64,000 nucleotides of DNA from an uncultured delta proteobacterium (GTDB lineage: Bacteria; Desulfobacterota; Desulfobacteria; Desulfobacterales; B30-G6). Positions 23,198-56,825 of the stretch are shown in pieces (within the stretch, counting starts at the first letter, position 1; the number at the start of each line of letters is the position of its first letter). The stretch covers positions 345,409-409,408 of the forward strand of contig CAWGLD010000007.1 of assembly GCA_963823335.1 (NCBI GenBank), given 5' to 3'. Both the position numbers and the translations under genes were made by a program. Below the pieces are notes generated by a model. It saw only the letters and a list, made by a program, of their open reading frames with translations. It did not search any database and was not told where the DNA came from.

Positions 23198-24673
23198 TCA
23201 CGCCTCCATATGCTCATTCTTCAACGTTTCCAATGCCCTTTCTCGTATCTGATCCAGGGATTGCTGAACATCGGCAGGCAATTTCAGCGGCCGGTGGTTT
23301 TCGAGAATGTCCATGGCCTTACTGACCGCTTTTTGGCCCCATGTTTTTTGCCCCTGGGCCATCCAGGGTTCAAGGGTTTCACGGTTGCAGAGCTGGGGTT
23401 GCCAATGTTCCTGTTTAAAATATTTCATGGTCTGTTCGGTTGAAATAAAGGCGCCCTGGGGACCCACCTGGCGGATCACATCCATGCCGATATGCTCCGG
23501 GTCGATGTCAAAACCGCGAATAACACGCCTCACGTAGCTGATGATCTCCGCATTCATTACAAGTGCCGCCGGAGACCCCACCAGGCCCTGTCCCAGATAT
23601 CCAATGTCATGAATCAGATTGGCACCGTCCAGTCCGGCCATGAGTAAAGAGATAGACCATTCCATGCCGGCCTGCTCATCAGGCACGTGTGCGTCGCTGA
23701 CCCCGGCTGTTCCCCACATGGGAATGCCGTAATAATGATACAGATCCGCGCAGGCCGACAGAGCCAGCCTGTATTCCGGACAACCATATACACATGCAGA
23801 TGTCTTCATATCCAGGGTGGACATACCGAACCCGGAAATGATCGGCGCACCTTTGGCCCTTAACTGATGAAGGACGATGCCACTCAAGGCTTCGGCATTT
23901 CCAACGGTAATGGCACCGGCCAGGGTCACCGGTGCGCTGGCCCCGGACATCATACCGGGTGTATAGTTTACCGGGACCGCATTGTCGGCACAAAAAAAGA
24001 GTTTTTTGATGGCCCCCGATGAGTGCATCAACGGCGTCAGTGGCTCAGCATAATGGATATGAATCGGCTTTTCCCTCAAGACATCTTTTCCGCCAACGAC
24101 AGCCGCAGCCATCTCATTGATGATGGCGATGTCTTTGGTTCCGGCCGCAGTAAAAAAAATGGGCTTTATGGCGTTTTCCAACTGGGTCTTGAAGGAATCG
24201 ATGTACATCAGGTTGGTGGGTGAGTCATATGGCAGGGCATAGGATCCCAAAAAATCGATCTCTTCGAGGGAATCGGCTATCCTGGCGGCATTTGCCACAT
24301 CCGCCAGTCTCGACTCTCTCAACACGCCGGACACCAGGTCATAGGTTTTGATCAAATCCGTCCCCATACCGAAATAGGATTTATTGCCTTCCAGGAGCAT
24401 GGCCTCCTGACCTAAGCGGTTATAGATGGTGATCCGTGAAGGCGCACTGCGGATGCAGTCTTCAACCAGCCAGTTGGGAATCTGGACGATGTTGTCTGGT
24501 TTTATCCGGCAACCGGCATGGGCCATCATATCCAGGGCCTCCGGATGCATCACCTTGACACCCACCGTTTCCAGGAGTTCCAGGGTGGCACAATGAATAT
24601 GTTCGATCTGATCCCGGGTCAGCACCCGATAGACCGGCAGACATTGTGATTTAAAGCCTGTGTTCATTACCAT
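23198..24673 (-). CDS. MttB-superfamily corrinoid methyltransferase, pyrrolysine-free (copy 1)
   Basis: IHCATLELLETVGV, GASAPVTLAG, GNAEALSG, DEQAGME, IRQVGPQG-F. No in-frame stop. Confidence 0.92.
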   Translation of the reverse strand: MVMNTGFKSQCLPVYRVLTRDQIEHIHCATLELLETVGVKVMHPEALDMMAHAGCRIKPDNIVQIPNWLVEDCIRSAPSRITIYNRLGQEAMLLEGNKSYFGMGTDLIKTYDLVSGVLRESRLADVANAARIADSLEEIDFLGSYALPYDSPTNLMYIDSFKTQLENAIKPIFFTAAGTKDIAIINEMAAAVVGGKDVLREKPIHIHYAEPLTPLMHSSGAIKKLFFCADNAVPVNYTPGMMSGASAPVTLAGAITVGNAEALSGIVLHQLRAKGAPIISGFGMSTLDMKTSACVYGCPEYRLALSACADLYHYYGIPMWGTAGVSDAHVPDEQAGMEWSISLLMAGLDGANLIHDIGYLGQGLVGSPAALVMNAEIISYVRRVIRGFDIDPEHIGMDVIRQVGPQGAFISTEQTMKYFKQEHWQPQLCNRETLEPWMAQGQKTWGQKAVSKAMDILENHRPLKLPADVQQSLDQIRERALETLKNEHMEA

Positions 24674-24748: not shown

Positions 24749-26899
24749 TTATGCAAATTTAGGGTTCATCCGTTTGCATGCCCCGCACACATGTATTGTT
24801 TCCGGCGCAACCCCATATGGTTTGACCTGTTTTTCCATATACGAAATGTATCTGCCTGCTCCCAGTTCTTTGCCGCATCCATGACAGTATACCAGGATAT
24901 CCCTGCAGAGGGTGATACCGCAAAGCCTGAGAACACACTGACCGTTTTCATGGGTCATGGTCATGGCGCCGGTGGGGCAGCTGTTGACACAAGCACCGCA
25001 CAGGATGCACCTTCCGGCGGTTAACTCGAAATCGGTCGGCCCCGGAGCCTGGTGATCAAAATAACCGAGACCCAGTGCTTGAAAACCCAATTTTTCATGA
25101 CATGCGTCCACGCATCTGCCGCACTGAATGCACACATCGCACCTGAGGCACCGTAAAGCCTCTGTCCTGGCTGCCTGCGGTGCAAGCGTCAATTCCACCT
25201 GTTCGAAAGTCTTTTTCCTTTTCTCTATATCAAGCAGGGGCAACGATGGTCTGGTTAGCGTTGTTTTCTGAGATGCCGTTGTTTCAAGAAAAGCTGTCTG
25301 TGTCCTGCGGGCCGAAAGATATCGTGTTTTCAGCAAAGGCTGTCCCTGGAAGTATCGATGGACGTTCTCCGCCGCTAGTTTTCCAGCCGCAATGGCCTCG
25401 ATAATGGTGGCCGGACCTGTAACCAAATCGCCGCCTGCAAAAACACCTTTTGCTCCTGTCTGCCCCGTCAAAGGATCCGCGACGATGGTGTTGTGTTCCG
25501 TCCACGTCAGACCATTAAAGGCCGAAAGCCCTTCCCGGTCAGACCACTGCCCTATGGCATGAAGAACAGCATCGGTCTTGAGCTCATGCATGCTCCCCTG
25601 GATGGGGATGGGTCTTTTTCTGCCGTTTTCATCGGCCTCCCCGAGCCTGGCGTCCACACAACAAATACCGGACACCTTGCTCTGGGACCCCGATATCTCC
25701 ACAGGAATCTTCAAAAAGGACACCCGGACACCCTCCTGCTCCGCCTGGATGACATCCTCCTTCAGGGCCGGCATTTCACTCCGGGTCCGTCGGTACAGAA
25801 CCGTAACATCGCTGCTACCCAAACGCAGTGCCGTTCGGGCGGCATCCAGCGCGACATTACCTCCCCCCACAACTGCCACACGAGAACCAATGGAAGGTGC
25901 ATGCCCCAGACCGGCCTGATGTAAATACGTAATGGCATCCATGACCGGTGAAAAATCATTTTCACCTTTTATACCCATTCGCAGCCCTTTGTGGGCTCCC
26001 GTTGCAACATAGAAGGATTCAAACCCTTCCTGTCGCAACGCTTCAACCGTTATGTCCTTTCCCATACGCGTGTTGAAACGAAAGACAACACCCAGTTCTT
26101 GAATCAAAGAAATCTCTCTTTCGAGAACGGACAGGGGCAGCCGGTATCTTGGGATGCCAACACGCATCATCCCGCCGGCCCACGGCAGAGATTCGATGAC
26201 GGTTACACCATAGCCCTTGAGGGATAAATAGTAGGCCGCGCTGAGTCCGGATGGTCCGGCACCCACAATACAGACTTTGTGACCGTTGTCCTGTGCCCTG
26301 GCAGGGTTTTTAAAGCCATCACCCTCAAGGACAATTTTGGATGAAAAGGCTTTGAGGGCCTTGATGGCAACAGGTGTGTCGATGTTTTTCCTCAGGCAGG
26401 CTGTTTCACACGGATGTGTACAGGTCAGGCCGCACACCCATGGGAAAGGGTTGGCTTCCCGAATCAGCGCTATTGCTTCATGATCTCTACCCTGCCCGAT
26501 CAAGGTCACGTAGCTTGCCACATCGATACCGGCTGGGCAGGCACATTGACACGCTGCCGGTGACAAAATTTCGCAATCACCCGTCAGACAGACATGATCC
26601 CTCATATGGGTCTCAAAACAGACACCTTCTGAAAACAGTACCGCTGCAATGGTTTTGCCCAAGAATGCGACCATTTCATTTTGTGAGGATTCAAGATATT
26701 TCCCCAGAGATTCGACCCTGGACAGGTCTTGGGGAAGTGCTTTTCCAAGAGAGATTTTTTCCAGGCTGGCACACAGCGATAAAAGCGCTTTTATTAAATG
26801 AGGGGCGAGTTGTTTCTGTGATAAACAGGTGCAATCCGAGAGTAGTCGGAACACCGGGCATGAAGGACGTTTTCCTTTCTCAACACTTGTAACTTTCAT
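24749..26899 (-). CDS. FAD/NAD(P)-dependent Fe-S oxidoreductase (GltD/SudA/NfnB-like) with extra C-terminal ferredoxin
   Basis: CQCACP, CGLTCTHPCE, VGAGPSG, VGGGNVA, FAGGD, CIQCGRC, CILCGACVNSCP. Confidence 0.9.
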   Translation of the reverse strand: MKVTSVEKGKRPSCPVFRLLSDCTCLSQKQLAPHLIKALLSLCASLEKISLGKALPQDLSRVESLGKYLESSQNEMVAFLGKTIAAVLFSEGVCFETHMRDHVCLTGDCEILSPAACQCACPAGIDVASYVTLIGQGRDHEAIALIREANPFPWVCGLTCTHPCETACLRKNIDTPVAIKALKAFSSKIVLEGDGFKNPARAQDNGHKVCIVGAGPSGLSAAYYLSLKGYGVTVIESLPWAGGMMRVGIPRYRLPLSVLEREISLIQELGVVFRFNTRMGKDITVEALRQEGFESFYVATGAHKGLRMGIKGENDFSPVMDAITYLHQAGLGHAPSIGSRVAVVGGGNVALDAARTALRLGSSDVTVLYRRTRSEMPALKEDVIQAEQEGVRVSFLKIPVEISGSQSKVSGICCVDARLGEADENGRKRPIPIQGSMHELKTDAVLHAIGQWSDREGLSAFNGLTWTEHNTIVADPLTGQTGAKGVFAGGDLVTGPATIIEAIAAGKLAAENVHRYFQGQPLLKTRYLSARRTQTAFLETTASQKTTLTRPSLPLLDIEKRKKTFEQVELTLAPQAARTEALRCLRCDVCIQCGRCVDACHEKLGFQALGLGYFDHQAPGPTDFELTAGRCILCGACVNSCPTGAMTMTHENGQCVLRLCGITLCRDILVYCHGCGKELGAGRYISYMEKQVKPYGVAPETIHVCGACKRMNPKFA

Positions 26900-27014: not shown

Positions 27015-28085
27015 TTAGGCTCTATCCAGATTTTCCTCTATATTCTCGAAATCAAAGCCTTCAGGATACTTGGAATAATACTCATGGTACCATTCCCTTG
27101 CCTCATAAGCCTGGATCAGATGTTCCGCCGGAACACCGAATGGGAGATCTCAGCCGGGGGCAAATGTGAACCCCTGGGTACCGCCTGCCGCAAGACTGAT
27201 CAGGGCATCTTCTCTGGGTGACAGAAGTCCCAGGCCGAGGGCAAGGGTCAACTTCAGATTTCCACCAAACCCTTTACCGTATTTTCTTGCGATATCACGG
27301 ACAAAATTCAGGTTCATCTGTTCATCGATGGCAAATCCGTGGGTACCGACCTTGCAGACATCTTCAATGACCTTTGTGCAGTCACCACAGATGAAGAAGC
27401 TGGAAGTCTTGCCGGCATCATGTATGGCTGTTACGGCTTCCTGGCAGTTGGGTGTCACATATTCCTGAAAAGTCTCAGGTCGAATCTGCGACGCTACCGG
27501 ATCCACGATAGCGATGATATCACACCCCATTTGCGTATAAAACCGGGCAGACTCGGCACAGAGTTTACCGGCATAGGCTATAATGGCATGAGCGAAATCC
27601 TTCTTTTTTTTCAATGCCGTAAAAATACGCACACCGGCCAGATGAGAAGCCAGGGTCAGGGGTCCGGTCACCAGGCCGAGCATGGCGCAGTCCATTTCGT
27701 CGAGTTGCGGTTTGACCTTGGCTGCCGCCTGGAAAATGATCGGCCACCTTCCGGATGTTTTTGTAAACACCCCCAGCCCGAGTTCTTCGGGTGTCAACTT
27801 TTCACAGGGATGGGTCTTCACCGAAGGCACATTGTCTTCCCAGTATTCCAGTTCACAACCAATGGATTCCGCTTCCAGGGAGAGATCGAACAAGAGGGGG
27901 ATGCCATCCGCATGATAGGTTTTGGCGGCATGGACAACTCCCCGGGAAAGGATATCCGCATCCTTGAGATACCTGTCTGCTTTTTCATTGATAAGATAGG
28001 CACAGTTGACACCGGCATACGGAACCCAGGGGGCCTTGTCCGTTTCTTTCCCCCGTGTGGCGTCGATGAGCATCTGTTTGGCCAT
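27015..28085 (-). CDS. MtaA/CmuA (URO-D family) methylcobamide methyltransferase-like selenoprotein, 356 aa, UGA at codon 312
   Basis: URO-D family motifs (DLSLEAESIGC, GPLTLA, DPVAS, FICGD, GGNL). The ORF track stops at FTFAPG-TGA, but the frame continues DLPFGVPAEHL...RA-TAA, matching the family APGC(D/E)LP motif. A hairpin follows the UGA. Confidence 0.85.
27114..27149 (-). promoter_or_regulatory. Bacterial SECIS-like hairpin
   Basis: After the UGA: GATCTCCCATTCGG-TGTTCC-GGC-GGAACA-TCTGATC. The G-led loop is ~20 nt downstream; core at 27121-27135. Confidence 0.7.
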
Positions 28086-28246: not shown

Positions 28247-28996
28247 TTATTTTTCTCGTATAGATCTGAACTGGCAGTGTTTCATCGCGCATTGCAGGCA
28301 TTTACTGCCCACGGGCTTTTGCTGCGCCGAATCACTGTATATGACAAAACCGGATATGGATTTTGCCGGTTGCATGACAAACGCATCATTCAGGTGCACA
28401 CCGGCTGTGTCTTGTCCCAACAGATCGAATATCAGGGTCTGGCTTTCCAGGGCCACGCCATTCAGACCCGGTCCCATCCGACATCCGGAAAAAAGACCCA
28501 TCCGTTGTGCATGCATCTCAATCATGTCATTGCATATCAACCCCATGGCATCCAGCATGGCTGTGCCAACAGCATCCAGCAGCAGGGATTGGTATATGCT
28601 GTTGCGTTTTGCAAGATCCCGGCACATGGTCTCGAGGGCACTGCCCAGGCTGCCGACAAAAACAGCAACATACCGGGCATCACTCTCCCACCTGTCAGGA
28701 AGCATGTCAGCATATGCGCCCCTTGACAAAACGATTCCGTATACTTCTTCAATCATGTCCATCGGAATCGCTCGATAACAAATAACCGCCTGTATCATCC
28801 CGACAGTCTGCCGGATGCCCTGGCATACCTGTTGACGTGTCTCCGGGGTCATGGGATAGTCCGGCCCCCCGAAGTAGCGGGCAACAGCCTCTGGTGACGG
28901 CCTGACATCTTCCGGGTCGACGTCAATTCTCACCGTCGATGAATCACCTGCCCCGAATATATCGGCAGTTATGAGTTTTTTCGGTTTGACAGTCAT
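28247..28996 (-). CDS. Stand-alone MetH activation-domain-like protein
   Basis: LLLDAVG, RMGPG, GVHLNDAFVMQPAKSISG and C-terminal CLQCAMKHCQFR. Confidence 0.8.
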   Translation of the reverse strand: MTVKPKKLITADIFGAGDSSTVRIDVDPEDVRPSPEAVARYFGGPDYPMTPETRQQVCQGIRQTVGMIQAVICYRAIPMDMIEEVYGIVLSRGAYADMLPDRWESDARYVAVFVGSLGSALETMCRDLAKRNSIYQSLLLDAVGTAMLDAMGLICNDMIEMHAQRMGLFSGCRMGPGLNGVALESQTLIFDLLGQDTAGVHLNDAFVMQPAKSISGFVIYSDSAQQKPVGSKCLQCAMKHCQFRSIREK

Positions 28997-29113
28997 TCCA
29001 TAAAAAACCGTTTTACGGTCACCACAGGAGTGTTCAACGACCGAAACACGAAAGATCCGACCATGCTTGAGAAAGGTCGTAATTTGGCTTTAAAAAAGCG
29101 GCGCAGCCGCGTC

Positions 29114-29140
29114 AAATAAAATCGCCCGGCGATTTTATTT
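29114..29140 (-). terminator. Hairpin directly after mtmB-like gene
   Basis: AAATAAAATCGCC-C-GGCGATTTTATTT, perfect inverted repeat with A/T tails. Confidence 0.55.
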
Positions 29141-30522
29141 TAGTAGGGAAACTCAATTCCCATGTCTGCGATTTCATCTTTGATTCTGCGGTACATATCG
29201 TAATGTTCCTGGGTCGGCACCGCTTTGGCGACATCGTAGCATTCATGGTACTCACTCCCGATGGGCGCATCTGCGGCATGGTCCTCGTATTTTGCCAGCA
29301 ATTTCTTGGCAATCGCATTGACTTCGGCCCGGGACAAGCCCTGGCACGCGACAGCATGGCCCACTTCCATGCCGATTCTGGCTTCCAGCGGTGTTGCACG
29401 ATTCTTGTATTTGTTGCGGGTCGAAGCCATCTCCCACAGGTGCCATCCAGTGACCGTCGAGACCATGGCGTGAACCGCGGTTTCCCGAAACAGCATCTCC
29501 GTCATGGGACCGGCATTGGCGAATCCATTGGAAGTATGCAGCAGTTTACTGTTTCTGGCCAGCGCCTGCCCTGCCATGGCGATGGCCCACAGCAACTCCC
29601 GGGTGGTGTTGGAACCGTAATTCAAATGAAATGGAAAGTGCTGATTGAAAACAGCACCGTGAATCACCAGACCGATAAGACTGTAGGCGACCGTGGTCAC
29701 CGCCGTTCCCTCTGAGCCGCCGCACCATCCACCGTAAATCGCCCCGGTCAGGTTCCCGGTATAGCAGCCATACTGGGCATAATGAAGGGAGCGATTGAGA
29801 AGTGTGTCGGCGGTCTTGAACTCGGTCAGGGACCCTACAAGCCGTGCATCTGATTTTTGAACGCCCCACTCCTGGTTTGATACGGCGATTTGACCGCTGT
29901 CGTGCTCCGCGGTCCCCACGGCAACCATAAATGTTCCCGGCCGTCCCAGCAGTCTTGCCGCCAGCTTCTGATTGGTGATGTGCTGGATACAGCCGCTGAT
30001 TTCAGAGGGACCCGAAGATTCGATCAGATGACCAAAGGTCTCTTCCAGGATCGGCCCGCAAATGCCGTCCAGAAGTGGTTCCTTGAGATAGGCCATGCAC
30101 ATGGACTGGTGGTACTGCTCGTCACAGGTGATGTCCGGGCTCATGATACAGAATGGGGGGGCCGTGTCTTCCACCTGCCGGTGTTTCCACAGGACAGCGT
30201 CTTTTCCGGCACCCACCCAATATTGATCATGGGCCATATACAGCGCTTCCCGAATCTCTTCATCGGTGACCTGGATCAGCCGGTGGGAATCGGTATTGTA
30301 ATACCCCACATCCCGGAACAGCTCCCAGGCAGCCTGCCAGATTCTGTCAGCCATGGCATCGTCTGTGGGGCACGGGTTTTCCGGGTCATATTTTATTTCA
30401 TATTTTTTGATAAGTTTTTTCAGGGTCGGTGTAAAGTGCTTGGGAAGAAAATCATCCTCCTCCATAAAAGGACCGGTCTGGGATCGTTCGAGAATCTCCC
30501 AGTGCCTGTAGGCTGTTGTCAT
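29140..30522 (-). CDS. MtmB-family (monomethylamine-type) corrinoid methyltransferase, pyrrolysine-free
   Basis: 460 aa; ERSQTGP, DDAMADRIW, GRPG, AGPMTEML, TPLEARI, ECYD. No amber codon. Confidence 0.88.
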   Translation of the reverse strand: MTTAYRHWEILERSQTGPFMEEDDFLPKHFTPTLKKLIKKYEIKYDPENPCPTDDAMADRIWQAAWELFRDVGYYNTDSHRLIQVTDEEIREALYMAHDQYWVGAGKDAVLWKHRQVEDTAPPFCIMSPDITCDEQYHQSMCMAYLKEPLLDGICGPILEETFGHLIESSGPSEISGCIQHITNQKLAARLLGRPGTFMVAVGTAEHDSGQIAVSNQEWGVQKSDARLVGSLTEFKTADTLLNRSLHYAQYGCYTGNLTGAIYGGWCGGSEGTAVTTVAYSLIGLVIHGAVFNQHFPFHLNYGSNTTRELLWAIAMAGQALARNSKLLHTSNGFANAGPMTEMLFRETAVHAMVSTVTGWHLWEMASTRNKYKNRATPLEARIGMEVGHAVACQGLSRAEVNAIAKKLLAKYEDHAADAPIGSEYHECYDVAKAVPTQEHYDMYRRIKDEIADMGIEFPY

Positions 30523-30787: not shown

Positions 30788-30797
30788 TTTGATCATC

Positions 30798-31433
30798 TCA
30801 TTTTGAGATGATCAAGTTTGCTAAAAGTTCAGGCGCACTCTTGGCGTCCTTACAGTAAAGGTCGGCACCGATCTGGTCGGCCCAAAGCTGGGAAGTGGGC
30901 GCACCACCGATAACAACCTTATATTGATCCCTTATCCCTTTTGAATTTAAAATCTCTATGATTTCTTTCTGACGTGGCATGGTGGTGGTCATCAGCGATG
31001 AAGCGCCGATGAAATCAGCACCCATGGCCTCGGCCTCCTTGATAAAGGTCAGCGGATCCACGTTGTATCCCAGATCCTTCACCACGAAACCATTGGTTTC
31101 CAGGATGAGCTTGACGATATTTTTGCCGATTTCATGCAGGTCCCCTTTGACCACGCCGATCACGATCTTGCCTTTGACTTCCTGTCCGCCGACCTCGTCC
31201 AGATAGGGCGCCATTACCTCGACCACAGCGGACAAGGCCTCTCCGGCCAGCATGATCTCGGGAAGGAAAATTTCCAGTTTTGAAAACAGGTCCCCCACAT
31301 GTGCCATGGTCCTGGTCATGGCCGCTATCATTTCCAGAGGGTTTGCACCGTCCTTGAGAAGCCTTTCGGCAAGCTCCCGGGCCTCCTCTGCTTCACCGTC
31401 TTCCACAAATTTGCTCAATTCCTCCAACGACAT
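30798..31433 (-). CDS. Corrinoid (B12-binding) protein, MttC/MtmC-like
   Basis: FLPEIMLAG, GDLHEIGKNIV, SSLMTTT, VIGGAP. Start moved to ATG 31433 after AGGAGG. Confidence 0.95.
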   Translation of the reverse strand: MSLEELSKFVEDGEAEEARELAERLLKDGANPLEMIAAMTRTMAHVGDLFSKLEIFLPEIMLAGEALSAVVEVMAPYLDEVGGQEVKGKIVIGVVKGDLHEIGKNIVKLILETNGFVVKDLGYNVDPLTFIKEAEAMGADFIGASSLMTTTMPRQKEIIEILNSKGIRDQYKVVIGGAPTSQLWADQIGADLYCKDAKSAPELLANLIISK

Positions 31434-31639
31434 GTCAGGCCTCCTTGCTATCAGCTCTTTTAGGATAATAATATAGATTGTTATAATAACGCATTTCACC
31501 TTGCCCTGAAGCAAGATGTTGCCGTAAAAAATCAGAAATTCCGGAGAACTAGATGAACATCGAATCCCGTCACGGCGGGAAACGTTCAGCATCCAACGTC
31601 GAATACGACAGGTCTCCGCATTTTGTACGGCTTCCTAAG

Positions 31640-31712: not shown

Positions 31713-32459
31713 TTATGGGGTCATGTTTTCCTGTTTAAAGAAATCGGCTGGGTCGAACTGGGGCGAGAAGGTATCCCGGAAAGCCATCTCACCGCGCATG
31801 TAATACTCCACATAGGTAACCGGATCGTCAAATGAATAGATCGTCCGCTTGATATGGAACACAGGATAACCCGGTTTTACACCAAAGATGGGGGCGGTCT
31901 CTTCTGAAAGAACGATCGCCTCCATACTCTGGCTGATCCTGGTAAGCTGCAGTTTGTATTTATTGATCAGAATGCTGTGAATGGATTCGTTTTTGAGATC
32001 CTCCCAGAGAATACCGGCACAGATATCAGGCCGTAGGTACCGTATTTCGTAACGCACCGGCTTTTGATCGAAATACCACAGACGGCTGATAAGAATCAAC
32101 TGCTCCCCGGTTTCCAGCTGTTTTGAAACATCGGCCGGAGGGTCTACCACCTGTGCCTTTTGAACATCCGTTGTCAGAACCACGTTCAGATCGTCAGCCC
32201 ACTTCTGAAACGGTCTGACCCGGAAAAATCCGGTGGTGTAATGCTTCTTCTTCACGAAGGTACCCTTGCCCGGCACGCGCTCAACAAACCCTTCCCTCTC
32301 TATGGCATCGATGGCTTTTCTGGCCGTCATGCGGCTGACACCAAAGGTTTCCGCCAGCCTGTTTTCCGAAGGCACAACATCCAAAAAATTTCGTGCCTTG
32401 ATGCCTTTGATGACATACTCCTTTATCTTTTCGTATTTCGGAATCTTTTTTTGCATCAT
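31713..32459 (-). CDS. hutC: GntR/HutC-family regulator (wHTH + UTRA)
   Basis: PSENRLAETFGVSRMTARKA...GKGTFV plus UTRA domain. Divergent from hutU. Confidence 0.85.
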   Translation of the reverse strand: MMQKKIPKYEKIKEYVIKGIKARNFLDVVPSENRLAETFGVSRMTARKAIDAIEREGFVERVPGKGTFVKKKHYTTGFFRVRPFQKWADDLNVVLTTDVQKAQVVDPPADVSKQLETGEQLILISRLWYFDQKPVRYEIRYLRPDICAGILWEDLKNESIHSILINKYKLQLTRISQSMEAIVLSEETAPIFGVKPGYPVFHIKRTIYSFDDPVTYVEYYMRGEMAFRDTFSPQFDPADFFKQENMTP

Positions 32460-32487
32460 ACATCCCCGTTTCACGGTCTGAAAACCC

Positions 32488-32597
32488 TGTATATACATCT
32501 GGCACACTATAGCCCCACCCGTTTGGATTGTCGAGAGCAAATTCCGCTTGACAAGTCCGGGAACGATGGTCATAACTACTCTTTGATTGTATATACA
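32488..32597. promoter_or_regulatory. Two HutC-type boxes and hutU promoter
   Basis: TGTATATACA at 32488-32497 and 32588-32597; TTGACA(32548)-17bp-CATAAC promoter between them. Confidence 0.8.
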
Positions 32598-32654: not shown

Positions 32655-34688
32655 GTGACAACCCATCCCCTTGCTGGTGATACCATGATGATCGAACCGG
32701 ACCAAAATCTCCCCGAACTGCCTGAGTTTGAAAGAGATATTCGCCGGGCCCCGGACCGCGGCTTTCGTCTGACACCCCAACAGGCTGAAATATCGCTGAA
32801 AAATGCCCTGCGCTATATTCCCGTAAAATGGCACGAAACCCTGGCATCCGAATTTCTGAATGAGTTGATGACACGTGGGAGGATCTATGGTTACCGGTAT
32901 AGACCCGCAGGGCCCATCAAGGCCAGGCCGGTTCATTCCTACACAGGCAGATGTCTTGCCGGAAAAGCCTTCCAGGTGATGATCGACAACAACCTTGATT
33001 TTGACGTCGCCCTCTATCCTTATGAACTGGTGACCTATGGAGAAACCGGGTCTGTCTGCCAGAACTGGATGCAGTATCGCCTGATAAAAAAATATCTGGA
33101 AGTACTCACCGAGGACCAGACTCTGGTGGTGGCATCCGGTCATCCCCTGGGGCTTTTTCAATCAAGACCGACCAACCCCCGGGTCATCATTACCAACGGA
33201 TTGATGGTTGGCAGATATGACAACCTGGATGATTGGGAAATTGCCGCCCAGATGGGAGTGGCAAGTTACGGCCAGATGACGGCTGGAGGATGGATGTATA
33301 TCGGTCCCCAGGGTATTGTGCATGGGACCTACAATACACTCCTGAACGCAGGTAGAATAAGATTCGGTCTGAGCAAGGAAGCCAATCTTGCCGGACGACT
33401 GTTTGTCTCTTCAGGCCTGGGGGGCATGAGCGGCGCTCAACCAAAAGCCGCAGAGATCGCCGGAGCCGTATCCATTATCGCCGAGGTTGATGGCTCCAGG
33501 ATACTGACCCGGCACCAGCAGGGCTGGGTAAAACATGTCTCTGACGATCTGGAAGAAACCTTTGCCCTGGCGGCTCAGGCCACTCAGAAGGGGGAACCGC
33601 TCTCCATCGCTTTTGCCGGGAACATCGTCGATCTGCTGGAGTACGCGGTGGACCACAACATAAAAATCGACCTGCTTTCGGATCAGACGTCATGCCATGT
33701 GGCCTATACCGGCGGGTACTGCCCCCAGGGCATCACCTTTGAAGAAAGAACCCGGCTCCTGGCAGAAAACAGAGGGACATTCTGTAAGCTTGTGGATAAA
33801 AGCCTCCGTCGCCACTTTGAATTGATCAAGATTCTCACGTCCAGGGGTGTCTATTTTTTTGATTACGGCAATGCGTTTCTAAAAGCGGTTTTCGACGCAG
33901 GCGTAACCGAAATTTCCAACAATGGCCTCGACGAAAAGGACGGGTTCATCTTTCCATCCTACTTTGAGGACATCATGGGACCCCATATTTTTGATTTCGG
34001 ATACGGCCCGTTCCGCTGGGTCTGTTTGAGCGGTGATCATAATGACCTGGTAAAGACCGACAAGGCAGCCATGGACTGCATCGATCCCCTTCGCAGGTAT
34101 CAGGACAGGGACAACTGGACCTGGATCAGGGATGCGGAAAAGTACCATCTCGTAGTGGGAACCCAGGCCAGGATCCTGTATCAGGACGCGGAAGGCAGAA
34201 TCAGGATCGCACTGAAATTCAACGAGATGGTAAGAAAGGGAGACGTGGGCCCCATAATGATCGGCCGGGATCACCACGATCCCGGCGGGACGGATTCACC
34301 CTTCCGGGAAACAGCCAATATAAATGATGGCAGCAATGTGATGGCCGACATGGCCACCCACTGTTTTGGTGGAAACTGCGCCAGGGGTATGTCCATGGTC
34401 GCTCTGCACAACGGTGGCGGGACAGGGATAGGAAATGCCATAAACGGCGGGTTTGGCCTGGTGCTGGACGGCAGTCAGAGAGTGGACGACACCATCCGGT
34501 CCGCTATTTCCTGGGATGTCATGGGCGGTGTGGCCAGACGGAACTGGGCCCGCAATACCAATGCCATGGAGGTCTGCCGAACCTTCAATGAGGCGAACAA
34601 GGGTGTGGGTCATGTCACCATTCCCTATCTGCCGGAAGAAAGCCTGGTTAAGGATATCGTGTCCAACGCTTTTAAGAAAAGGTCCTGA
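32655..34688 (+). CDS. hutU: Urocanate hydratase, long form, canonical
   Basis: YGQMTAGGWMYIGPQGIVHGT, GLGGMSGAQP, SDQTSCH, GRDHHD, HNGGG. GTG start after AAGGAGG. Confidence 0.95.
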   Translation: MTTHPLAGDTMMIEPDQNLPELPEFERDIRRAPDRGFRLTPQQAEISLKNALRYIPVKWHETLASEFLNELMTRGRIYGYRYRPAGPIKARPVHSYTGRCLAGKAFQVMIDNNLDFDVALYPYELVTYGETGSVCQNWMQYRLIKKYLEVLTEDQTLVVASGHPLGLFQSRPTNPRVIITNGLMVGRYDNLDDWEIAAQMGVASYGQMTAGGWMYIGPQGIVHGTYNTLLNAGRIRFGLSKEANLAGRLFVSSGLGGMSGAQPKAAEIAGAVSIIAEVDGSRILTRHQQGWVKHVSDDLEETFALAAQATQKGEPLSIAFAGNIVDLLEYAVDHNIKIDLLSDQTSCHVAYTGGYCPQGITFEERTRLLAENRGTFCKLVDKSLRRHFELIKILTSRGVYFFDYGNAFLKAVFDAGVTEISNNGLDEKDGFIFPSYFEDIMGPHIFDFGYGPFRWVCLSGDHNDLVKTDKAAMDCIDPLRRYQDRDNWTWIRDAEKYHLVVGTQARILYQDAEGRIRIALKFNEMVRKGDVGPIMIGRDHHDPGGTDSPFRETANINDGSNVMADMATHCFGGNCARGMSMVALHNGGGTGIGNAINGGFGLVLDGSQRVDDTIRSAISWDVMGGVARRNWARNTNAMEVCRTFNEANKGVGHVTIPYLPEESLVKDIVSNAFKKRS

Positions 34689-34689
34689 A

Positions 34690-36255
34690 ATGCAATCCAT
34701 TGTTATCGACAAGGAAAATTTGACCATTGAGGATGTGGTGGCCATCGCCCGAAAAGGTGTGCGGGTCGATGCCTCCAGCCAGGGCGTGCTGCGGGTCGAA
34801 AAAGCCCGTGAGCTGATCGCCAAATGGGTCAGTGAAAAAAAAGTGATCTATGGAATCACCACCGGGTTTGGCGCCTTGTGCAATGTTCCCATTTCGGAAT
34901 CCGACACCCGGTTGCTGCAGAATAAAATCATCATGAGCCACGCCTCGGGCGTGGGGTCACCCCTTCCCGAAGATGTTGTTCGGGCTGTAATGGCCGTCCG
35001 GCTGCATGACCTGTTCATGGGATACTCCGGCTGTTCAATCACGACCCTGCGGTACTTGATGGCCTTTCTCAACCAGGGGCTGACACCGGTCGTGCCTGAA
35101 AAGGGATCGGTGGGATCCAGCGGAGACCTGGCACCCATGGCTCACCTGGGTCTGGTTCTGTTAGGAAAAGGCGAGGCTTTTTATAAGGGCGAACGCCTCA
35201 GCGGTGCCAGGGCACTGGAAAAGATCGGACTTTCCCCCATCAGCCTTGCAGCCGGGGAAGGTCTGGCCCTTATCAACGGTACCCAGGTAATGACCGGCAT
35301 CGCCACCCTGGTGGTTCACGATGCCATCCGCCTGGCAAAAATGGCTGACATCGCCTGCGCCATGAGCCTGGAAGTGCTCATGGGAAGCAATTCTGAATTC
35401 GACCCGCGAATTCATCAGATACGACCTCATCCGGGGCAGATTGCGTCAGCCGAAAATATGCTGCGACTGACCAGTGAAAGTGAAATCATTCTCTCCCACG
35501 AAGGATGCGCCCGTGTTCAGGATGCCTATACCCTGCGATGTTCGCCCCAGATTCACGGTGCCAGTAAGGATGCCGTCGTACATGCTCAAAATGTTGTGAA
35601 GATTGAAATCAATGCATCCACCACCAACCCGTTGATCTTCACCGACACCCAGGAGATCCGCCTGGGAGGAAATTTTCACGGCCAGCCCATCGCCATGGCA
35701 GCCGATTACCTCTCCATGGGGATTGCCGAATTAGGGAATGTGTCCGAACGTCGCATCGAAAGGCTGGTCAACCCGCAATTGAGCGAACTGCCCGCCTTTC
35801 TGGTAAAAAACGGCGGACTCAATTCAGGATTCATGATAGCCCAGTACACGGCCGCCGCCCTGGTTTCCGAAAACAAAGTGCTGGCACATCCAGCTTGTGT
35901 GGACTCGATTCCCACTTCTGCGAACAAGGAAGACCATGTCAGCATGGGCACCATCGCTATTCGACAGTGCCGGGAAATTCTGGATAATGTAGAGCATGTT
36001 CTTGCCGTGGAGATGCTGTGCGCTGCTCAGGCCTATGATCTCCTGAATGAAAAGAACAAAATGATGGGAGGCAGGGGCACTCGGGTAGCCCACCAGGTAA
36101 TTCGAGAAACAATTTCCTATCTTGAAGAAGACCGGGAGCTGTTCATAGATATCGAAAAGATGGTGGCCCTGATCCGCTCAGGTAAAATAATACACGCAGT
36201 GGAAAAGGCTGTGGGTAAGCTCGATCTGGTCAGCTTTGATAAACAGAGCTGCTGA
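34690..36255 (+). CDS. hutH: Histidine ammonia-lyase, canonical
   Basis: YGITTGFG, SHASGVG, MIO triad SSG, QDAYTLRC, GGNFHGQP, EDHVSMG. Start moved to ATG 34690. Confidence 0.93.
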   Translation: MQSIVIDKENLTIEDVVAIARKGVRVDASSQGVLRVEKARELIAKWVSEKKVIYGITTGFGALCNVPISESDTRLLQNKIIMSHASGVGSPLPEDVVRAVMAVRLHDLFMGYSGCSITTLRYLMAFLNQGLTPVVPEKGSVGSSGDLAPMAHLGLVLLGKGEAFYKGERLSGARALEKIGLSPISLAAGEGLALINGTQVMTGIATLVVHDAIRLAKMADIACAMSLEVLMGSNSEFDPRIHQIRPHPGQIASAENMLRLTSESEIILSHEGCARVQDAYTLRCSPQIHGASKDAVVHAQNVVKIEINASTTNPLIFTDTQEIRLGGNFHGQPIAMAADYLSMGIAELGNVSERRIERLVNPQLSELPAFLVKNGGLNSGFMIAQYTAAALVSENKVLAHPACVDSIPTSANKEDHVSMGTIAIRQCREILDNVEHVLAVEMLCAAQAYDLLNEKNKMMGGRGTRVAHQVIRETISYLEEDRELFIDIEKMVALIRSGKIIHAVEKAVGKLDLVSFDKQSC

Positions 36256-36341: not shown

Positions 36342-36833
36342 ATGAATGTTGTATTTGTTGAACTTGATCGGTGCATTGCCTGCTTGAGTTGTGAAAAGGC
36401 ATGTCTGTTTCAACAGGCAGCCAGAAACACAGAGGCAAGCCCGAATATCTTTGTTCGCGTGGACCTGGACCGACGCCGGATTTATGCCGGCACATGCCTG
36501 CAGTGTGAAACCGCTCTCTGCCTGGAAGTATGCCCGATCAAAGCCATAACACGAGATCCGGAAACGTCGGCCGTTATCGTCGATCAGAAGATTTGTCTCG
36601 GGTGTGGTATGTGCGTATCGGCCTGCCCTTTTGGATACATGTACCTGGAAGACTCCTGCCAAAAGGCAACCAAATGCGACCTGTGCGGCGGTACGCCGAA
36701 GTGCGTTCAGATGTGCATGGCCAGGGCCTTACATTTCGGCAGCATCAATTCTCTTGCCGAACGCAAACGTAAACAGACCGATTTGCGCCTGAGTCTTAGG
36801 GCCGTCCCAATCCATACGGGTGAAGAAAAATGA
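36342..36833 (+). CDS. 4Fe-4S dicluster electron-transfer subunit (DmsB/HydN-like)
   Basis: CIACLSCEKAC, CLQCETALCLEVCP, CLGCGMCVSACP, KCDLC. Confidence 0.92.
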   Translation: MNVVFVELDRCIACLSCEKACLFQQAARNTEASPNIFVRVDLDRRRIYAGTCLQCETALCLEVCPIKAITRDPETSAVIVDQKICLGCGMCVSACPFGYMYLEDSCQKATKCDLCGGTPKCVQMCMARALHFGSINSLAERKRKQTDLRLSLRAVPIHTGEEK

Positions 36834-38890
36834 CGGGCAGGACCTTTGTTGAAAACGCGGTCGTAAAAACCCTGTGCCGCATGTGCAGCAACCGCTGCAG
36901 CATCGATGTACACGTCCAGGATGGCCGTATGGTTGAAATCACACCCGGGCAGGGAAACCCCTGCAACCAGGGCAGGATGTGCCCCCGGGGAGGTGCTGCG
37001 CTGGATATGTTTTATCACCCCGACCGTATCCGCACACCCTTGAAGAGACTTGACGACGGCTCATTTGTGAAAATCAGCCGCGAAACAGCCATTGCTGAAA
37101 TTGCCGAGAAGATGATGCAGATTAAGCATCGCTATGGTGCCCGGTCCATGGGGGTATGGAAAGGCGAGGCGATCGGTTTCCTTCAGCAGGAGGAGTATGC
37201 CCGCAGGTTTGCCCACGCATTCGGCACACCCAATTATTTTTCCAACGATTCTGCCTGTTACAATGGCCGATTTCTGGGGCACATGCTGGTAAACGGTTTC
37301 TGGAATCCCTTTTCCTACTATGCCAAGGCGGACCTGATTCTGATTTTCGGCACCAACCCACCTGTGTGCCACCCGCCTTTCATGGCCGAATTTGCCGATG
37401 CCAAGGCAAACGGTGCCAATCTGGTGGTGATCGATCCGAGACTGAATCCCATTGCCTGCTACGCCGATGTTTTTGCCCAGCCCCTGCCGGGCACCGATGG
37501 TGCCATAGCCTGGGGTCTGATTCGTTATATTGTCAAGGCCGGTGAATATGATCACGAGCTGATGGATCGCTACAGCATCGGATTTGAGGAAGTAGTCGCC
37601 TACGCGGAAAAATTCAGCCCTGATTATGTCGAAGAACAAACCGGTGTCTATGCCGATGTTGTGGTCAAAATCGCTCAACTGATTGTTGAGAACCGTCCCA
37701 AGATCAGTTTTTATATGGGTGCCGGTCTGGAGCACCACGACAACGGCGTCGACAACATCCGTGCCCTGGTGATCCTGTCCTGCATTACGGGTGCCTTTGA
37801 TATGGATTGCGGGCTTTACTGGCCCGACGACATGCCCAGGAACGCCTTGACTCTGTATGACGAACTGCCTCTGGAAAAGGAAAAACCCATCGGTGCCGAC
37901 CGCTTCCCGGTGCTTTACGAGCTTCGCAAGGAGTGCCATTCCATGACCGCCATGGATTATATGCTCGGCAAGGGCGAGTATCCGTTGAAGGGACTCATCG
38001 TCACCGCCGCCAATCCAGCCGTCACCAATCCCAACACCCGCAAGGTGGAAGCGGCCCTGGGATCTCTGGACCTCCTGGTGGTCAATGACCTGTTTCTGAC
38101 GAAGACCGCCCGGCTGGCACATTATATCCTGCCCGCCGCCTCCTTTTTGGAACGTTCCGAAATCCACATCGACCCTAAATATCAACGTGTCTATCTCACC
38201 AGCAAGGTGGCGGAAATTCCGGGAATAAAAGACGAATACATGCTCTGGCACGACCTGGCCCATGTCCTGGGCTTTGGTGAGCGCTACTTCCCGTGGGAAA
38301 ACGAGACCCAGGTCAACCAGTTTATACTGGAGCCTTCCAATATCCGGCTCGAACAGCTGCAGGCCCATCCGGAAGGGATTCAGTATAAACCACTGACGTT
38401 CCAGAAACATCTCTCGCGACCCCTGCCGACAGCCTCAGGAAAAATCGAACTGGCTTCCTCTTACTTAAAAAAGCTCGGTTTTTCAGCAATCCCCGAATAC
38501 GTGCCGCCCTATCACCTGCGCGAGAAGTCAGAGGACTACCCTTTCATTCTCACCACAGGTGCACGCAAGACCCTGTTGTATCACTCCAGACATCAGAACT
38601 TAGAGCATTTCCGGAAGATACATCCCAACGCGCGGGTGGAAATTCACCCCGACGATGCTGCAGCGCTGGAAATCAGCGACGGAAACCCGGTTCGAATCGT
38701 TTCAAGTATCGGAGAACTGGTGGTGGAGGCAAACATCGTGCACAAAAACGAGCTTCTCCGGGGTGTTATAGAGATGTATCACGCCTGGGAAGATTGGCGC
38801 ATCAATTTCACCACTTTCGACAGTGTCAACGATCCCATCAGCGGATTCCCCCTCCTGAAGGGTGTACCTGTACGGTTGGAAAAAATATGA
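36830..38890 (+). CDS. Mo/W-bisPGD oxidoreductase catalytic subunit, cytoplasmic (copy 1)
   Basis: CRMCSNRC...CPRG, NDSAC (putative Cys ligand), ILPAASFLE, VEIHPDDAAAL. No Tat signal. Confidence 0.9.
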   Translation: MTGRTFVENAVVKTLCRMCSNRCSIDVHVQDGRMVEITPGQGNPCNQGRMCPRGGAALDMFYHPDRIRTPLKRLDDGSFVKISRETAIAEIAEKMMQIKHRYGARSMGVWKGEAIGFLQQEEYARRFAHAFGTPNYFSNDSACYNGRFLGHMLVNGFWNPFSYYAKADLILIFGTNPPVCHPPFMAEFADAKANGANLVVIDPRLNPIACYADVFAQPLPGTDGAIAWGLIRYIVKAGEYDHELMDRYSIGFEEVVAYAEKFSPDYVEEQTGVYADVVVKIAQLIVENRPKISFYMGAGLEHHDNGVDNIRALVILSCITGAFDMDCGLYWPDDMPRNALTLYDELPLEKEKPIGADRFPVLYELRKECHSMTAMDYMLGKGEYPLKGLIVTAANPAVTNPNTRKVEAALGSLDLLVVNDLFLTKTARLAHYILPAASFLERSEIHIDPKYQRVYLTSKVAEIPGIKDEYMLWHDLAHVLGFGERYFPWENETQVNQFILEPSNIRLEQLQAHPEGIQYKPLTFQKHLSRPLPTASGKIELASSYLKKLGFSAIPEYVPPYHLREKSEDYPFILTTGARKTLLYHSRHQNLEHFRKIHPNARVEIHPDDAAALEISDGNPVRIVSSIGELVVEANIVHKNELLRGVIEMYHAWEDWRINFTTFDSVNDPISGFPLLKGVPVRLEKI

Positions 38891-45637: not shown

Positions 45638-45688
45638 GGGAGATATTTTCCTTTTATCGATTATGAACCGAAAATATCAAAAATAATT

Positions 45689-45845
45689 TGAACGTCGAAC
45701 ATCGAACGTCCAACATCCAACTTCGAATGTGGCTGTCAGTCACACAGCGTAAAAGAATGCGCCGCGTGTCGCTTTGTCTCATTTATCAAAGAGATAGAAT
45801 TCCACATTCGATGTTCAGCGTTCGATGTTCGATGTTGGACGTTCA
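45689..45845. repeat. Inverted heptamer arrays, family B (AACATCG/AACGTCC)n
   Basis: ~44-bp arms at 45689-45732 and 45802-45845. Related copies at 31554-31603, 53187-53345 and 59590-59635. Confidence 0.8.
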
Positions 45846-45852
45846 TCTTTTC

Positions 45853-47322: not shown

Positions 47323-47414
47323 ACCTGTTCCTATTGTGATTTGTGATTTTAGTGTTTCACTCGAATCCTCGAATCCTCGAACCCTGGAATCCTTGATCAA
47401 CTTTTTTGCGTTGA

Positions 47415-48484: not shown

Positions 48485-49048
48485 ATGCAAGAAAACATCA
48501 ATGCCTTTTTACGTGTCCTGGATGCCACCGACAATTCCACCGGCGGCGGGACCGCCTCGAGCATTGCGGGCGCCATGGCCGCTGGACTGGCAGCCATGGT
48601 GGCGCGCCTATCCATGGACAAAAAAAACCTTGCACCCACACAGACCTATCAATCCATAGCAGCAGAAGCGGAAATACTTTCTGCAGAACTTTTTAATGGC
48701 GGTCAAGAGGATGCCGCCGCCTTTGACCGGGTCACCAGGACCTATAAGATGCCAAAGGATACCACAGCCGCCAAAGACGCGCGGACCCAGGCCGTTCAAG
48801 AGGCCATGCAGCACGCGGCAGAAGTACCCCTCTCAAACGCTGCACGATGTAAGCGGGTTCTGGAAATCTGCCAGCGTCTGGGAAAAAGCTACAACACCAA
48901 TGCGGCCTCTGATCTCGAATGTGCCCTCCACCTGGCAACAGCCGGCCTGAAAGGATGTGCCGCCAATGTCAGAATCAATCTGCCCTATATAAAAGATGAG
49001 AGCATTCGCAAAGATATCGAGGAAAAATTGGAAGCGATTCTGCAGTAA
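48485..49048 (+). CDS. Formiminotetrahydrofolate cyclodeaminase (FTCD C-terminal family)
   Basis: GGGTASSIAGAMAAGL, DAAAFD, NAASD, NVRINL. Confidence 0.9.
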   Translation: MQENINAFLRVLDATDNSTGGGTASSIAGAMAAGLAAMVARLSMDKKNLAPTQTYQSIAAEAEILSAELFNGGQEDAAAFDRVTRTYKMPKDTTAAKDARTQAVQEAMQHAAEVPLSNAARCKRVLEICQRLGKSYNTNAASDLECALHLATAGLKGCAANVRINLPYIKDESIRKDIEEKLEAILQ

Positions 49049-49138
49049 ATCGTGTAACAATCACTTGAACCCTTGAGTCCTTGACCCCTTGAACCCTTTC
49101 TCCCGAAAAACGGGCAGAAACACAAAGGAGAACCTGGA

Positions 49139-50044: not shown

Positions 50045-50170
50045 AATCGTTTCACGATTTTTTTCGTGCTTTCGTCGTTTCGTGATTTCGTGATAAAAGA
50101 GCTGTTTTCTTTCCCGGCTTGTCCGAATAGACGCCAGTAATTAGACAATCAGACTTTCAGAGGTTGAACA

Positions 50171-52995: not shown

Positions 52996-53345
52996 ATCCT
53001 AATATCGAAATACGAAACAAACTCAAATTTCAAATGTTCAAATTATCAAGACATAGCAATTTGGCTCGGATGGCTTCACTTGTTTCGGTCATTGGGATTT
53101 ATATCATTTGGTATTGTTTAGGATTTCTTATTTCATGCTTCGAATTTAGTTGGGCTTCGATATCTGCAAAGTTCACAGACACTAACATGAACGTCCAACA
53201 TCGAACGTCCAACATCGAATTTTGAATGGGTAGAAAGGAAGAAATAGAAATTAGCTCATAGGGCTTGATCAGGTAACAGCTATCACCTATCAGCTATTAG
53301 TGTGTTTTCATTCGACGTTGGACTAGTTCGATGTTCGATGTTCAT
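52994..53345. repeat. Family C (52994-53148) and family B (53187-53345) inverted-repeat elements inside the operon
   Basis: Two stacked long hairpin-forming elements between the hutH-like and hutU-like genes. Confidence 0.75.
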
Positions 53346-53441
53346 CTTTTTAAAATTTTAAATACCTCCGAAGGCTTGGGGTTCAAGGATCCAAAATATT
53401 ATACCTTTAATGTGCATACAATAATGAAGGAGGCTCAGACT

Positions 53442-55175: not shown

Positions 55176-55177
55176 AT

Positions 55178-55338: not shown

Positions 55339-55363
55339 AAACTTGAATGTAAGGAGATTCAAA

Positions 55364-56821: not shown

Positions 56822-56825
56822 GCTT

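Follow-up and report, generated by a model that had tools for sequence, protein, structure and literature searches.

A pyrrolysine-free MtmB homolog paired with a corrinoid protein in Desulfobacterota and its possible role in the demethylation of methylated histidine

We analyzed a 64,000-nucleotide stretch of an uncultured delta proteobacterium of the Desulfobacterales (contig CAWGLD010000007.1, positions 345,409 to 409,408, assembly GCA_963823335.1), which is called the window throughout, and in it the gene termed MtmBh. MtmBh is a homolog of the methyltransferase MtmB without pyrrolysine (Pyl), and its gene adjoins that of a corrinoid protein (Corr). It is directly supported that MtmBh has the MtmB fold, lacks Pyl, is consistently paired with Corr, and lies in conserved gene neighborhoods. 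In our estimate, the chances are about even that MtmBh serves a hercynine-type demethylation pathway as an N-methylhistidine:corrinoid methyltransferase, a reading that is built on sequence comparisons.

An earlier note on this DNA had described an uninterrupted open reading frame of 460 residues without giving its strand. The frame was indeed unbroken from ATG to TAA in the translation of the minus strand, and an AGGAGG Shine-Dalgarno sequence is located 6 nt 5' of the ATG. The encoded protein includes LLGRPGTFMVAVGTAEHD. Pfam MtmB (PF05369) aligned over practically the whole protein (residues 8-456 with profile positions 4-450 of 450; 292 bits, E 9.4e-87), and no NCBIfam family matched. The alignment to Methanosarcina MtmB that had been proposed as a check was carried out by a phmmer search of the PDB, in which MtmBh matched M. 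barkeri MtmB (1L2Q/1NTH) with an E value of 1.9e-51 and without gaps around the conserved GRPG. GRPGMGVX of 1L2Q, in which X is Pyl202, pairs with GRPGTFMV of MtmBh, and Val200 thus occupies the Pyl202 position. The in-frame UAG that MtmB proper requires at this position is absent, in agreement with the earlier statement that no amber codon follows GRPG, and internal stops were likewise absent from all 14 close orthologs (at least 77% identity) and from all 20 genomes of a further genome check. A profile built from our alignment A1 scored 1L2Q at 476 bits.

We generated an AlphaFold2 model of MtmBh from a 77-sequence alignment, as a single-sequence run was unusable (pLDDT 38). The resulting model (pLDDT 96, pTM 0.94) superimposed on 1L2Q with a TM score of 0.95 and an rmsd of 1.4 Å over 454 columns at 28% identity, and MtmBh is accordingly predicted to have the TIM-barrel fold of 1NTH/1L2Q. 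Agreement of this extent, from the profile match to the model, goes far beyond chance. Glu229 and Glu259 of M. barkeri MtmB, which may be Pyl contacts, came to stand opposite Leu228 and Leu258 when counted by hand, and no weight is given to this. In the model, Val200 lies on the predicted beta-strand E198-200, in agreement with the accessible text of PMC9842639, where Pyl202 is said to be held by a strand of the barrel.

MtmBh is the single MtmB-family gene of the genome to which the window belongs (4.37 Mb, 11 contigs), and this gene contains no TAG. Orthologs with 92-97% identity are present in 12 of the 14 other genomes of the same family, and copies with 77-79% identity occur in two further families of the order; altogether, 16 of 41 genomes matched, a count that includes paralogs and the window's own genome. 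A search of 5.8 billion proteins gave 541 matches at E <= 1e-20, the best 120 of which are 73-95% identical, carry names such as Desulfobacula, Desulfococcaceae, and Desulfobulbaceae, and in 102 cases are exactly 460 residues long. A scan of genome collections confirmed 86 loci, and the best 80 of them, which were retained, show 71-97% identity and belong to Desulfobacterota, Spirochaetota (16 records), and Gemmatimonadota (1 record). Among the carriers are Desulfobacterales, Desulfobulbaceae, the cultured Desulfocicer vacuolatum DSM 3385 (locus L028), and the Olavius Delta-1 symbiont. The clade shares the conserved motif GRPG[TV]F[MF]VAVGTAEHD, with Val200 and the VAVGTAEHD block retained in nearly all of 63 orthologs (65-row alignment, two rows of which are paralogs).

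Beyond the clade, 985 of 1.84 billion cluster representatives, defined at the 50% identity level, matched at E <= 0.001, and 197 matched at E <= 1e-30. The nearest representative outside the clade is an Aminicenantes cluster with 53% identity, and all other full-length matches have at most 37%. GRPG is conserved across 123 full-length representatives, and the segment that follows it is hypervariable. Because of the identity gap (from 71-97% to 53% and then to 37% or less) and the kept motif, the clade is, as judged from its sequences, an isolated and strongly constrained subfamily in a large family of Pyl-free MtmB homologs, and MtmBh is predicted to be under strong purifying selection. With these 985 representatives, the Pyl-free homologs are a large orphan family, for which the accessible part of PMC13044021 gives one characterized member, the tetramethylammonium/choline:corrinoid methyltransferase MtqB/MtqC of Methanococcoides methylutens Q3c, published in 2026, and calls the remaining ones of unknown function. 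With this exception, the view of the earlier note that Pyl-free MtmB homologs are largely uncharacterized still holds. No Methanococcoides was found among the names of 10 family clusters that were looked up for MtqB.

The lack of Pyl in MtmBh is not shared by all methyltransferases of the host. PylD is encoded outside the window (contig C2, 77134-77955; 251 bits versus a cut-off of 150). The 26 MTTB matches of the host genome include 6 full-length genes with exactly one in-frame TAG and 13 full-length genes with none, and each of the 5 MtbB matches has one TAG; these mttB and mtbB genes are distributed over the contigs C1, C2, C6, and C7. By this gene content, the host decodes Pyl and is a methylated-amine specialist that uses it, so that the absence of Pyl in MtmBh is not forced by the genetic code.

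For the comparison of neighborhoods, the open reading frames of the 80 loci and of the window were clustered without use of annotation, and neighbors were counted at those 31 loci whose flanks extend to the full 10 kb on either side, with tblastn matches accepted at E <= 1e-15, an identity of 30% or more, and a coverage of 60% or more of the query. Corr was next to MtmBh at all 31 loci. An MttB-family gene and an SBP_bac_3 importer were each found at 20 loci, a molybdenum (Mo) enzyme at 19, all of the Desulfobacterota type, a ferredoxin at 18, genes resembling MtaA and the MetH activation domain at 16 each, and a RACo-type corrinoid reductive activase (RACo) at 10. Histidine-catabolic markers of any kind were present at 10 of the 31 loci (histidine ammonia-lyase, HAL, at 6; urocanase, HutI, and a HisC-like transaminase at 3 each), and three additional genomes have a HAL gene 10-16 kb from MtmBh on the same contig.

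At the spirochaete loci, the order is IclR, HisC-like transaminase, Corr, MtmBh, with the transaminase (337 bits versus the hisC cut-off of 276.55) directly upstream of the Corr-MtmBh pair. On the 3' side follows an MttB-like gene or a dipeptide-type substrate-binding protein and then an indolepyruvate-type ferredoxin oxidoreductase (IOR) and an ADP-forming acyl-CoA synthetase (ACD). The transaminase beside MtmBh is one of at least two such paralogs in three of four spirochaete genomes checked; in the spirochaete with a complete chromosome, no HAL match was found, and one of its two HisC-family genes above the cut-off is the one adjoining MtmBh. Three spirochaete loci (L080, L083, L092) have beside the MtmBh pair a second Pyl-free MtmB paralog, 30-38% identical and with its own corrinoid protein, which at L092 is followed by a pterin-binding methyltransferase of the type that unloads methyl-corrinoid (MT2). 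Several substrate:corrinoid methyltransferases (MT1) in a row would fit a stepwise demethylation.

The link to histidine thus comes in two unrelated forms: Desulfobacterota have hutU/hutH, and spirochaetes have a HisC-like transaminase together with IOR and ACD. Both modules occur beside near-identical MtmBh motifs in distant phyla, and as histidine alone fits both, this favors a histidine substrate. The earlier note had suggested an N-methyl amino acid (N-alpha-methylhistidine or N-methylglutamate) or a ring N-methyl group. Methylated histidine is favored by the comparative context, namely the two unrelated kinds of histidine catabolism near orthologs and the operon that joins hutU and hutH with the corrinoid activase; nothing points specifically to N-methylglutamate.

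In the window, hutU1, hutH1, a ferredoxin gene, the Mo enzyme gene Mo1, and RACo form a tight block on the plus strand, which is divergent from gntR-Corr-MtmBh on the minus strand, with the GntR/UTRA regulator gene directly opposed to hutU1. MT1, corrinoid protein, MT2, and activase of a three-component system are encoded together, with MtmBh and the non-Pyl MttB superfamily member MttB1 as MT1, Corr, the MtaA-like protein, and RACo, and the two MT1 families appear to use one corrinoid protein. HutU1 matched 6UEK over its full length (566 bits). We had also considered HutU1 as a divergent hydratase of modified urocanate and rejected this, as the 6UEK match identifies it as an ordinary long-form urocanase. 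At the position that forms the 4-methylideneimidazol-5-one (MIO) group, HutH1 has Ser-Ser-Gly (GSSGDL) instead of the usual Ala-Ser-Gly, which is present in HAL2 of a second hut operon (GASGDL; 336 bits to the HAL 7TQR versus 195 bits to the ergothionase 6S7J). Both HALs keep a MIO-type motif and therefore need a free alpha-amino group. The assignment of either HAL as an ergothionase or a histidine betaine trimethylammonia-lyase (HBTL) was rejected on the basis of the MIO motifs and these similarities.

The second hut operon is followed by MttB3, a further non-Pyl MttB. Among 150 genomes sampled from the class, none had an MttB3 ortholog (36% identity at best), but a metagenome scan yielded 12 MttB3 loci with orthologs of 55-87% identity, and the order of hut operon and MttB3 was kept in all six metagenome loci that reach upstream (L103, L105, L109-L112). 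The three most divergent of these six add MttB2 orthologs, one of them also a Mo2-like gene and one an MttB1 ortholog. By this context, MttB3 is itself a candidate for a hercynine methyltransferase.

What follows on substrate, step order, methyl acceptor, and Mo enzyme is inferred. As a Pyl-free MT1, MtmBh would bind an N-methylated histidine-type compound, with N-alpha,N-alpha-dimethylhistidine or N-alpha-methylhistidine as candidates after a non-Pyl MttB has removed the first methyl group of hercynine, and with N-pi- or N-tau-methylhistidine as alternative candidates. The methyl group would be transferred to the Co(I) of the adjacent corrinoid protein, the MtaA-like enzyme would unload the methyl-corrinoid, and RACo would maintain the cofactor in the Co(I) state, possibly aided by the MetH-activation-like protein. 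The product histidine would then be consumed by HutH and HutU in Desulfobacterota or by the HisC-like transaminase, IOR, and ACD in spirochaetes. Hercynine would be the natural entry compound, since the characterized non-Pyl MttB enzymes all use quaternary amines according to the accessible text of PMC13044021 and MttB paralogs are found in or beside the hut operons.

Several observations weigh against this assignment. No histidine marker is present within 10 kb at 21 of the 31 full-flank loci, and a HisC-family transaminase with IOR would suit aromatic amino acids equally. Ferredoxin, MtaA-like, and MetH-activation-like genes occur at none of the 16 spirochaete loci and a Mo enzyme at only one (L083), and the roles of all four components are putative. 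Some spirochaete loci (e.g., L066) have no MttB within 10 kb, so a route that begins with hercynine is not self-contained there. Dipeptide-type transporters (L088, L091, L092) and an M20 peptidase (L083) point to ring-methylated histidine from anserine-like dipeptides. Finally, the host has Pyl-type methyltransferases for trimethylamine (TMA) and dimethylamine (DMA) and no Pyl-containing MtmB, which leaves room for a role with monomethylamine (MMA).

An N-methyl group on the histidine ring, with dipeptides of the anserine or balenine type or muscle protein as its source, is the alternative substrate within the histidine reading, and N-alpha and ring methylation are not separable here. The ring-methylated form is favored by the same spirochaete loci without MttB, their dipeptide-type transporters and M20 peptidase, and by a dipeptide-type transporter with an S58 peptidase in the window. 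The latter group (4306-11518) comprises a Dpp/Opp-type ABC transporter (SBP_bac_5, two permeases, two ATPases) beside a Peptidase_S58 of the DmpA/BapA family. It is located about 18 kb from MtmBh and could matter if the substrate arrives as a beta-alanyl dipeptide.

A less probable view, to which we nevertheless give appreciable weight, is that MtmBh demethylates another N-methylated amino acid or amine and that the hut linkage only reflects how genes are arranged in particular lineages; the substrate could then be tryptophan betaine or a methylated aromatic amino acid, methylated lysine or arginine, sarcosine, or dimethylglycine. The lack of a histidine marker at 21 of the 31 full-flank loci would agree with this view, IOR with a HisC-family transaminase is the classic route for aromatic amino acids, the importer is of a generic polar-amino-acid type with the best family scores to cystine and Lys/Arg/Orn binders, and the Gemmatimonadota locus carries pyridoxal phosphate-dependent decarboxylases and an M24 peptidase instead. 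It is opposed by the occurrence of both the Hut and the HisC-like modules beside near-identical motifs in distant phyla, with histidine as the one amino acid that fits both, by the location of RACo in one operon with hutUH, and by the three non-Pyl MttB paralogs that flank the two hut operons of the window, with a conserved link between hut and MttB3.

A more far-reaching version of the histidine reading, which we consider improbable as a whole, is that the island encodes a full route from ergothioneine or hercynine to free histidine in anoxic sediments without release of TMA. A stand-alone, acetylene-hydratase-like Mo/W-pterin enzyme would reductively desulfurize ergothioneine, and the MttBs and MtmBh would strip the three N-alpha methyl groups onto one corrinoid protein. 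The pterin enzyme would be fed by ferredoxin and an NAD(P)H flavoprotein and would catalyze the reverse of the half-reaction of MES, the ergothioneine synthase of Caldithrix abyssi. Since the metallopterin module of MES is described as acetylene-hydratase-like (accessible part of PMC9516567) and Mo1 belongs to that branch, a reductive step from ergothioneine to hercynine is conceivable. In the PDB, Mo1 scores almost equally with FdhF (7QV7, 212 bits) and acetylene hydratase (2E7Z, 211 bits). It keeps the Cys metal ligand, followed by Tyr where FdhF has His, and is encoded in one operon with ferredoxin, NAD(P)H flavoproteins, hutUH, and RACo. In Atlas, it falls into generic clusters only ("acetylene hydratase family" and "anaerobic dehydrogenase"). 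Formate dehydrogenase was rejected as an assignment of Mo1 because of this Tyr and a score of 316 bits versus a cut-off of 666. In front of the ferredoxin-Mo pair, loci of the Desulfobulbaceae type have a PadH-like NADH flavoprotein. If the ergothioneine route existed, MtmBh would be the first known Pyl-free demethylase of a secondary or tertiary amino-acid amine.

It is rather unlikely that MtmBh is a Pyl-independent MMA methyltransferase that completes the chain from TMA via DMA and MMA to ammonia. The host would be suited to such a function, with PylD, six TAG-containing mttB and five TAG-containing mtbB genes, and MtmBh without TAG as the only MtmB-family gene; mtbB is present in all 14 other genomes of the family, 12 of which have an MtmBh ortholog. 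MtqB reportedly has a small MMA activity (accessible text of PMC13044021), and a paper on such Deltaproteobacteria names only TMA and DMA methyltransferases in its accessible part (PMC8318568). However, an MtbB homolog occurs in the flanks of just 1 of the 80 MtmBh loci and a close Pyl-MttB relative (more than 36% identity) at none of them. MtmBh is present and mtbB was not found in G041, which is a complete chromosome, G042, G043, G017, and G022 (60% complete), whereas five mtbB-positive relatives (G005, G008, G009, G016, G024) lack an MtmBh ortholog. Moreover, the conserved neighbors are amino-acid importers and genes of amino-acid catabolism, and a Pyl-decoding host has no evident reason to avoid Pyl.

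Similarly unlikely is an MtqB-like methyltransferase of quaternary amines or sulfonium compounds (choline, tetramethylammonium, betaine, or dimethylsulfoniopropionate, DMSP): the sole characterized Pyl-free MtmB uses quaternary amines (accessible text of PMC13044021), but full-length relatives outside the clade all have at most 53% identity, genes for choline, ethanolamine, or betaine-type transport (OpuA/BCCT) are not among the conserved neighbor clusters, and an MttB-family enzyme, the usual MT1 for quaternary amines, is already beside MtmBh at 20 of 31 loci. In favor of such a role, Desulfobacterium vacuolatum (L028), with the gene order Corr-MtmBh-MtaA-like-CobW-MttB1, reportedly demethylates glycine betaine and DMSP.

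Table 1. Features of the MtmBh region and the adjoining island; positions refer to the window.
Feature	Position	Strand	Remarks
MttB1, non-Pyl MttB superfamily	23198..24673	minus	PF06253 327 bits, no internal stop
GltD-like NAD(P)H Fe-S flavoprotein	24749..26899	minus	Pyr_redox_2, Fer4_20, Fer4; NF009410 501 bits
MtaA/CmuA-like URO-D methyltransferase, candidate MT2, non-canonical	27150..28085	minus	PF01208 132 bits; TIGR01463 121 bits, below cut-off
MetH activation-domain-like protein	28247..28996	minus	Met_synt_B12 PF02965, 36.5 bits
Terminator-like hairpin and T-run	29098..29110	minus	30 nt 3' of MtmBh stop; consensus scan, weak
MtmBh, Pyl-free MtmB homolog	29140..30522	minus	460 aa; putative substrate:corrinoid methyltransferase (MT1)
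Corrinoid protein (Corr)	30798..31592	minus	B12-binding_2 and B12-binding domains (PF02310 and PF02607); TIGR02370 180 bits, below 215 cut-off
GntR/UTRA (HutC-type) regulator	31713..32573	minus	Pfam GntR and UTRA; TIGR02018 120 bits, below 220 cut-off
HutU1, long-form urocanate hydratase	32655..34688	plus	TIGR01228 435 bits, above 375 cut-off
HutH1, histidine ammonia-lyase	34453..36255	plus	TIGR01225 667 bits; probable start ~34693
4Fe-4S dicluster ferredoxin-like subunit	36342..36833	plus	Fer4_11
Mo1, cytoplasmic bis-MGD molybdo/tungsto-pterin enzyme	36830..38890	plus	Pfam; acetylene-hydratase/FdhF-like branch
RACo-type corrinoid reductive activase	38794..40896	plus	RACo_C_ter, Raco_middle, RACo_linker; NF040756 460 bits
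Second module, Mo2 (43520-45637) and MttB2 (45853-47400)	43520..47400	minus	Mo2 46% identical to Mo1; MttB2 55% identical to MttB1
Second hut operon FTCD_C, FtcD, HutI, HAL2, HutU2, then non-Pyl MttB3 (55343-56821)	48485..56821	plus	family matches
Polar-amino-acid-type ABC importer: two permeases, ATPase, SBP_bac_3	56787..60549	plus	follows MttB3

Some of the listed features need comment. Corr probably starts at Met54 (~31433), which gives 211 residues as in its orthologs; the listed frame of HutH1 begins 80 codons 5' of its probable start and overlaps hutU1, and the family match of RACo starts at residue 37 of its reading frame. The MtaA-like protein is short (311 residues) and has FICG opposite the HICG of MtaA (4AY7), with Phe in place of the His that we take to be a zinc ligand. 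By sequence, it might not be a zinc-dependent thiol methyltransferase. MttB1 matched MtgB (2QNE) with 228 bits and MttB (7XCL) with 221 bits. The terminator-like match 3' of MtmBh is weak, as the consensus scan gave 16 sites versus 10.6 +/- 3.4 expected.

Eight estuary metatranscriptome runs contain 26-47% of the sampled words of 27150-32573, and contigs from four of the eight cover 29-30 of 30 bins of 22500-41500 at a likeness of at least 95%. These contigs were assembled from RNA libraries, in which DNA carry-over is possible, and differences in depth and one uncovered bin were not used as evidence; we regard the contigs as a weak sign of transcription. The spacer between Corr and MtmBh (30523-30797) has 275 nt, whereas L028, L061, and similar loci have spacers of about 65-95 nt, and metatranscriptome contigs of several runs break or diverge within it at about 30710-30766, which we record as loose ends. 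A search of 19000-61000 with Rfam at gathering thresholds gave nothing, so no annotated riboswitch was found there, including the spacer.

Farther away, the region 19708-22944, which flanks the cluster, encodes a multihaem c-type cytochrome (531 residues) and a B12-binding radical SAM protein (551 residues); the radical SAM gene also adjoins MttB1 in L016 and L081. After Mo2 come, likewise on the minus strand, an FAD/BBE-type oxidoreductase (42014-43441) and a protein of 321 residues (40993-41958) to which neither Pfam nor NCBIfam gave a match. The island ends with a fusion (60616-61590) of an IS200/Y1-type transposase domain and the C-terminal helix-turn-helix domain of DnaA.

The MtmBh clade is a real, conserved, and uncharacterized subfamily. 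The prediction of its substrate is specific enough to be tested, and Desulfocicer vacuolatum DSM 3385 is available as a cultured carrier. If methylated histidine is indeed the substrate, marine and estuarine sediments would have a corrinoid-dependent sink for hercynine, ergothioneine, or methylhistidines, which would rival the TMA-releasing lyase routes, and this pathway for methylated histidine in oxygen-free marine mud would be one not yet described. We found nothing in the literature on a corrinoid-dependent demethylation of hercynine or histidine betaine, although subscription journals and supplements may hold more, and nothing relevant on methylhistidine with corrinoid or on mtmB in Desulfobacterales. 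The known chemistry of the MtmB fold would be widened, and the finding would bear on why, in a Pyl-making organism, small methylamines need Pyl and larger methylated amines do not.

In comparison with known systems, MtmBh shares with M. barkeri MtmB (1NTH/1L2Q) the full-length PF05369 domain, the TIM-barrel fold, GRPG, and the adjacent corrinoid protein gene. It differs by its low identity of 28%, the absence of UAG, Val at the position of Pyl202, the clade-specific VAVGTAEHD block, and its bacterial host, and its gene is not clustered with those of Pyl-type methylamine methyltransferases but has amino-acid importers and histidine catabolism as neighbors. MtqB, which was compared by description only, likewise belongs to the MtmB family, has no Pyl, and works with a corrinoid protein encoded next to it, but the context of MtmBh is bacterial amino-acid and histidine catabolism and not methanogenesis. 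The MtgB/MtgC/MtgA system of Desulfitobacterium hafniense (2QNE) resembles the window in that an MT1 is combined with a corrinoid protein, an MT2, and an activase for the use of methylated ammonium compounds, and the island also holds MtgB-type non-Pyl MttB paralogs (MttB1-3); MtmBh itself belongs to an unrelated sequence family of a similar fold class (TM ~0.5).

Ergothionase and HBTL of Shewanella woodyi are MIO-less HAL homologs that release TMA (accessible part of bioRxiv 10.1101/2025.08.13.670108). As in the proposed route, hercynine-type histidine betaines of anoxic marine settings are fed into urocanate by these enzymes, whereas the HALs of the window keep MIO-type motifs and the proposed route would take the methyl groups singly, without release of TMA. 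MES, as described in the accessible part of PMC9516567, has in common with Mo1 a cytoplasmic, Cys-ligated bis(molybdopterin guanine dinucleotide) module with an N-terminal Fe4S4 domain on the acetylene-hydratase-like branch. Unlike MES, Mo1 lacks a cysteine desulfurase domain, and its partners are a ferredoxin and NAD(P)H flavoproteins.

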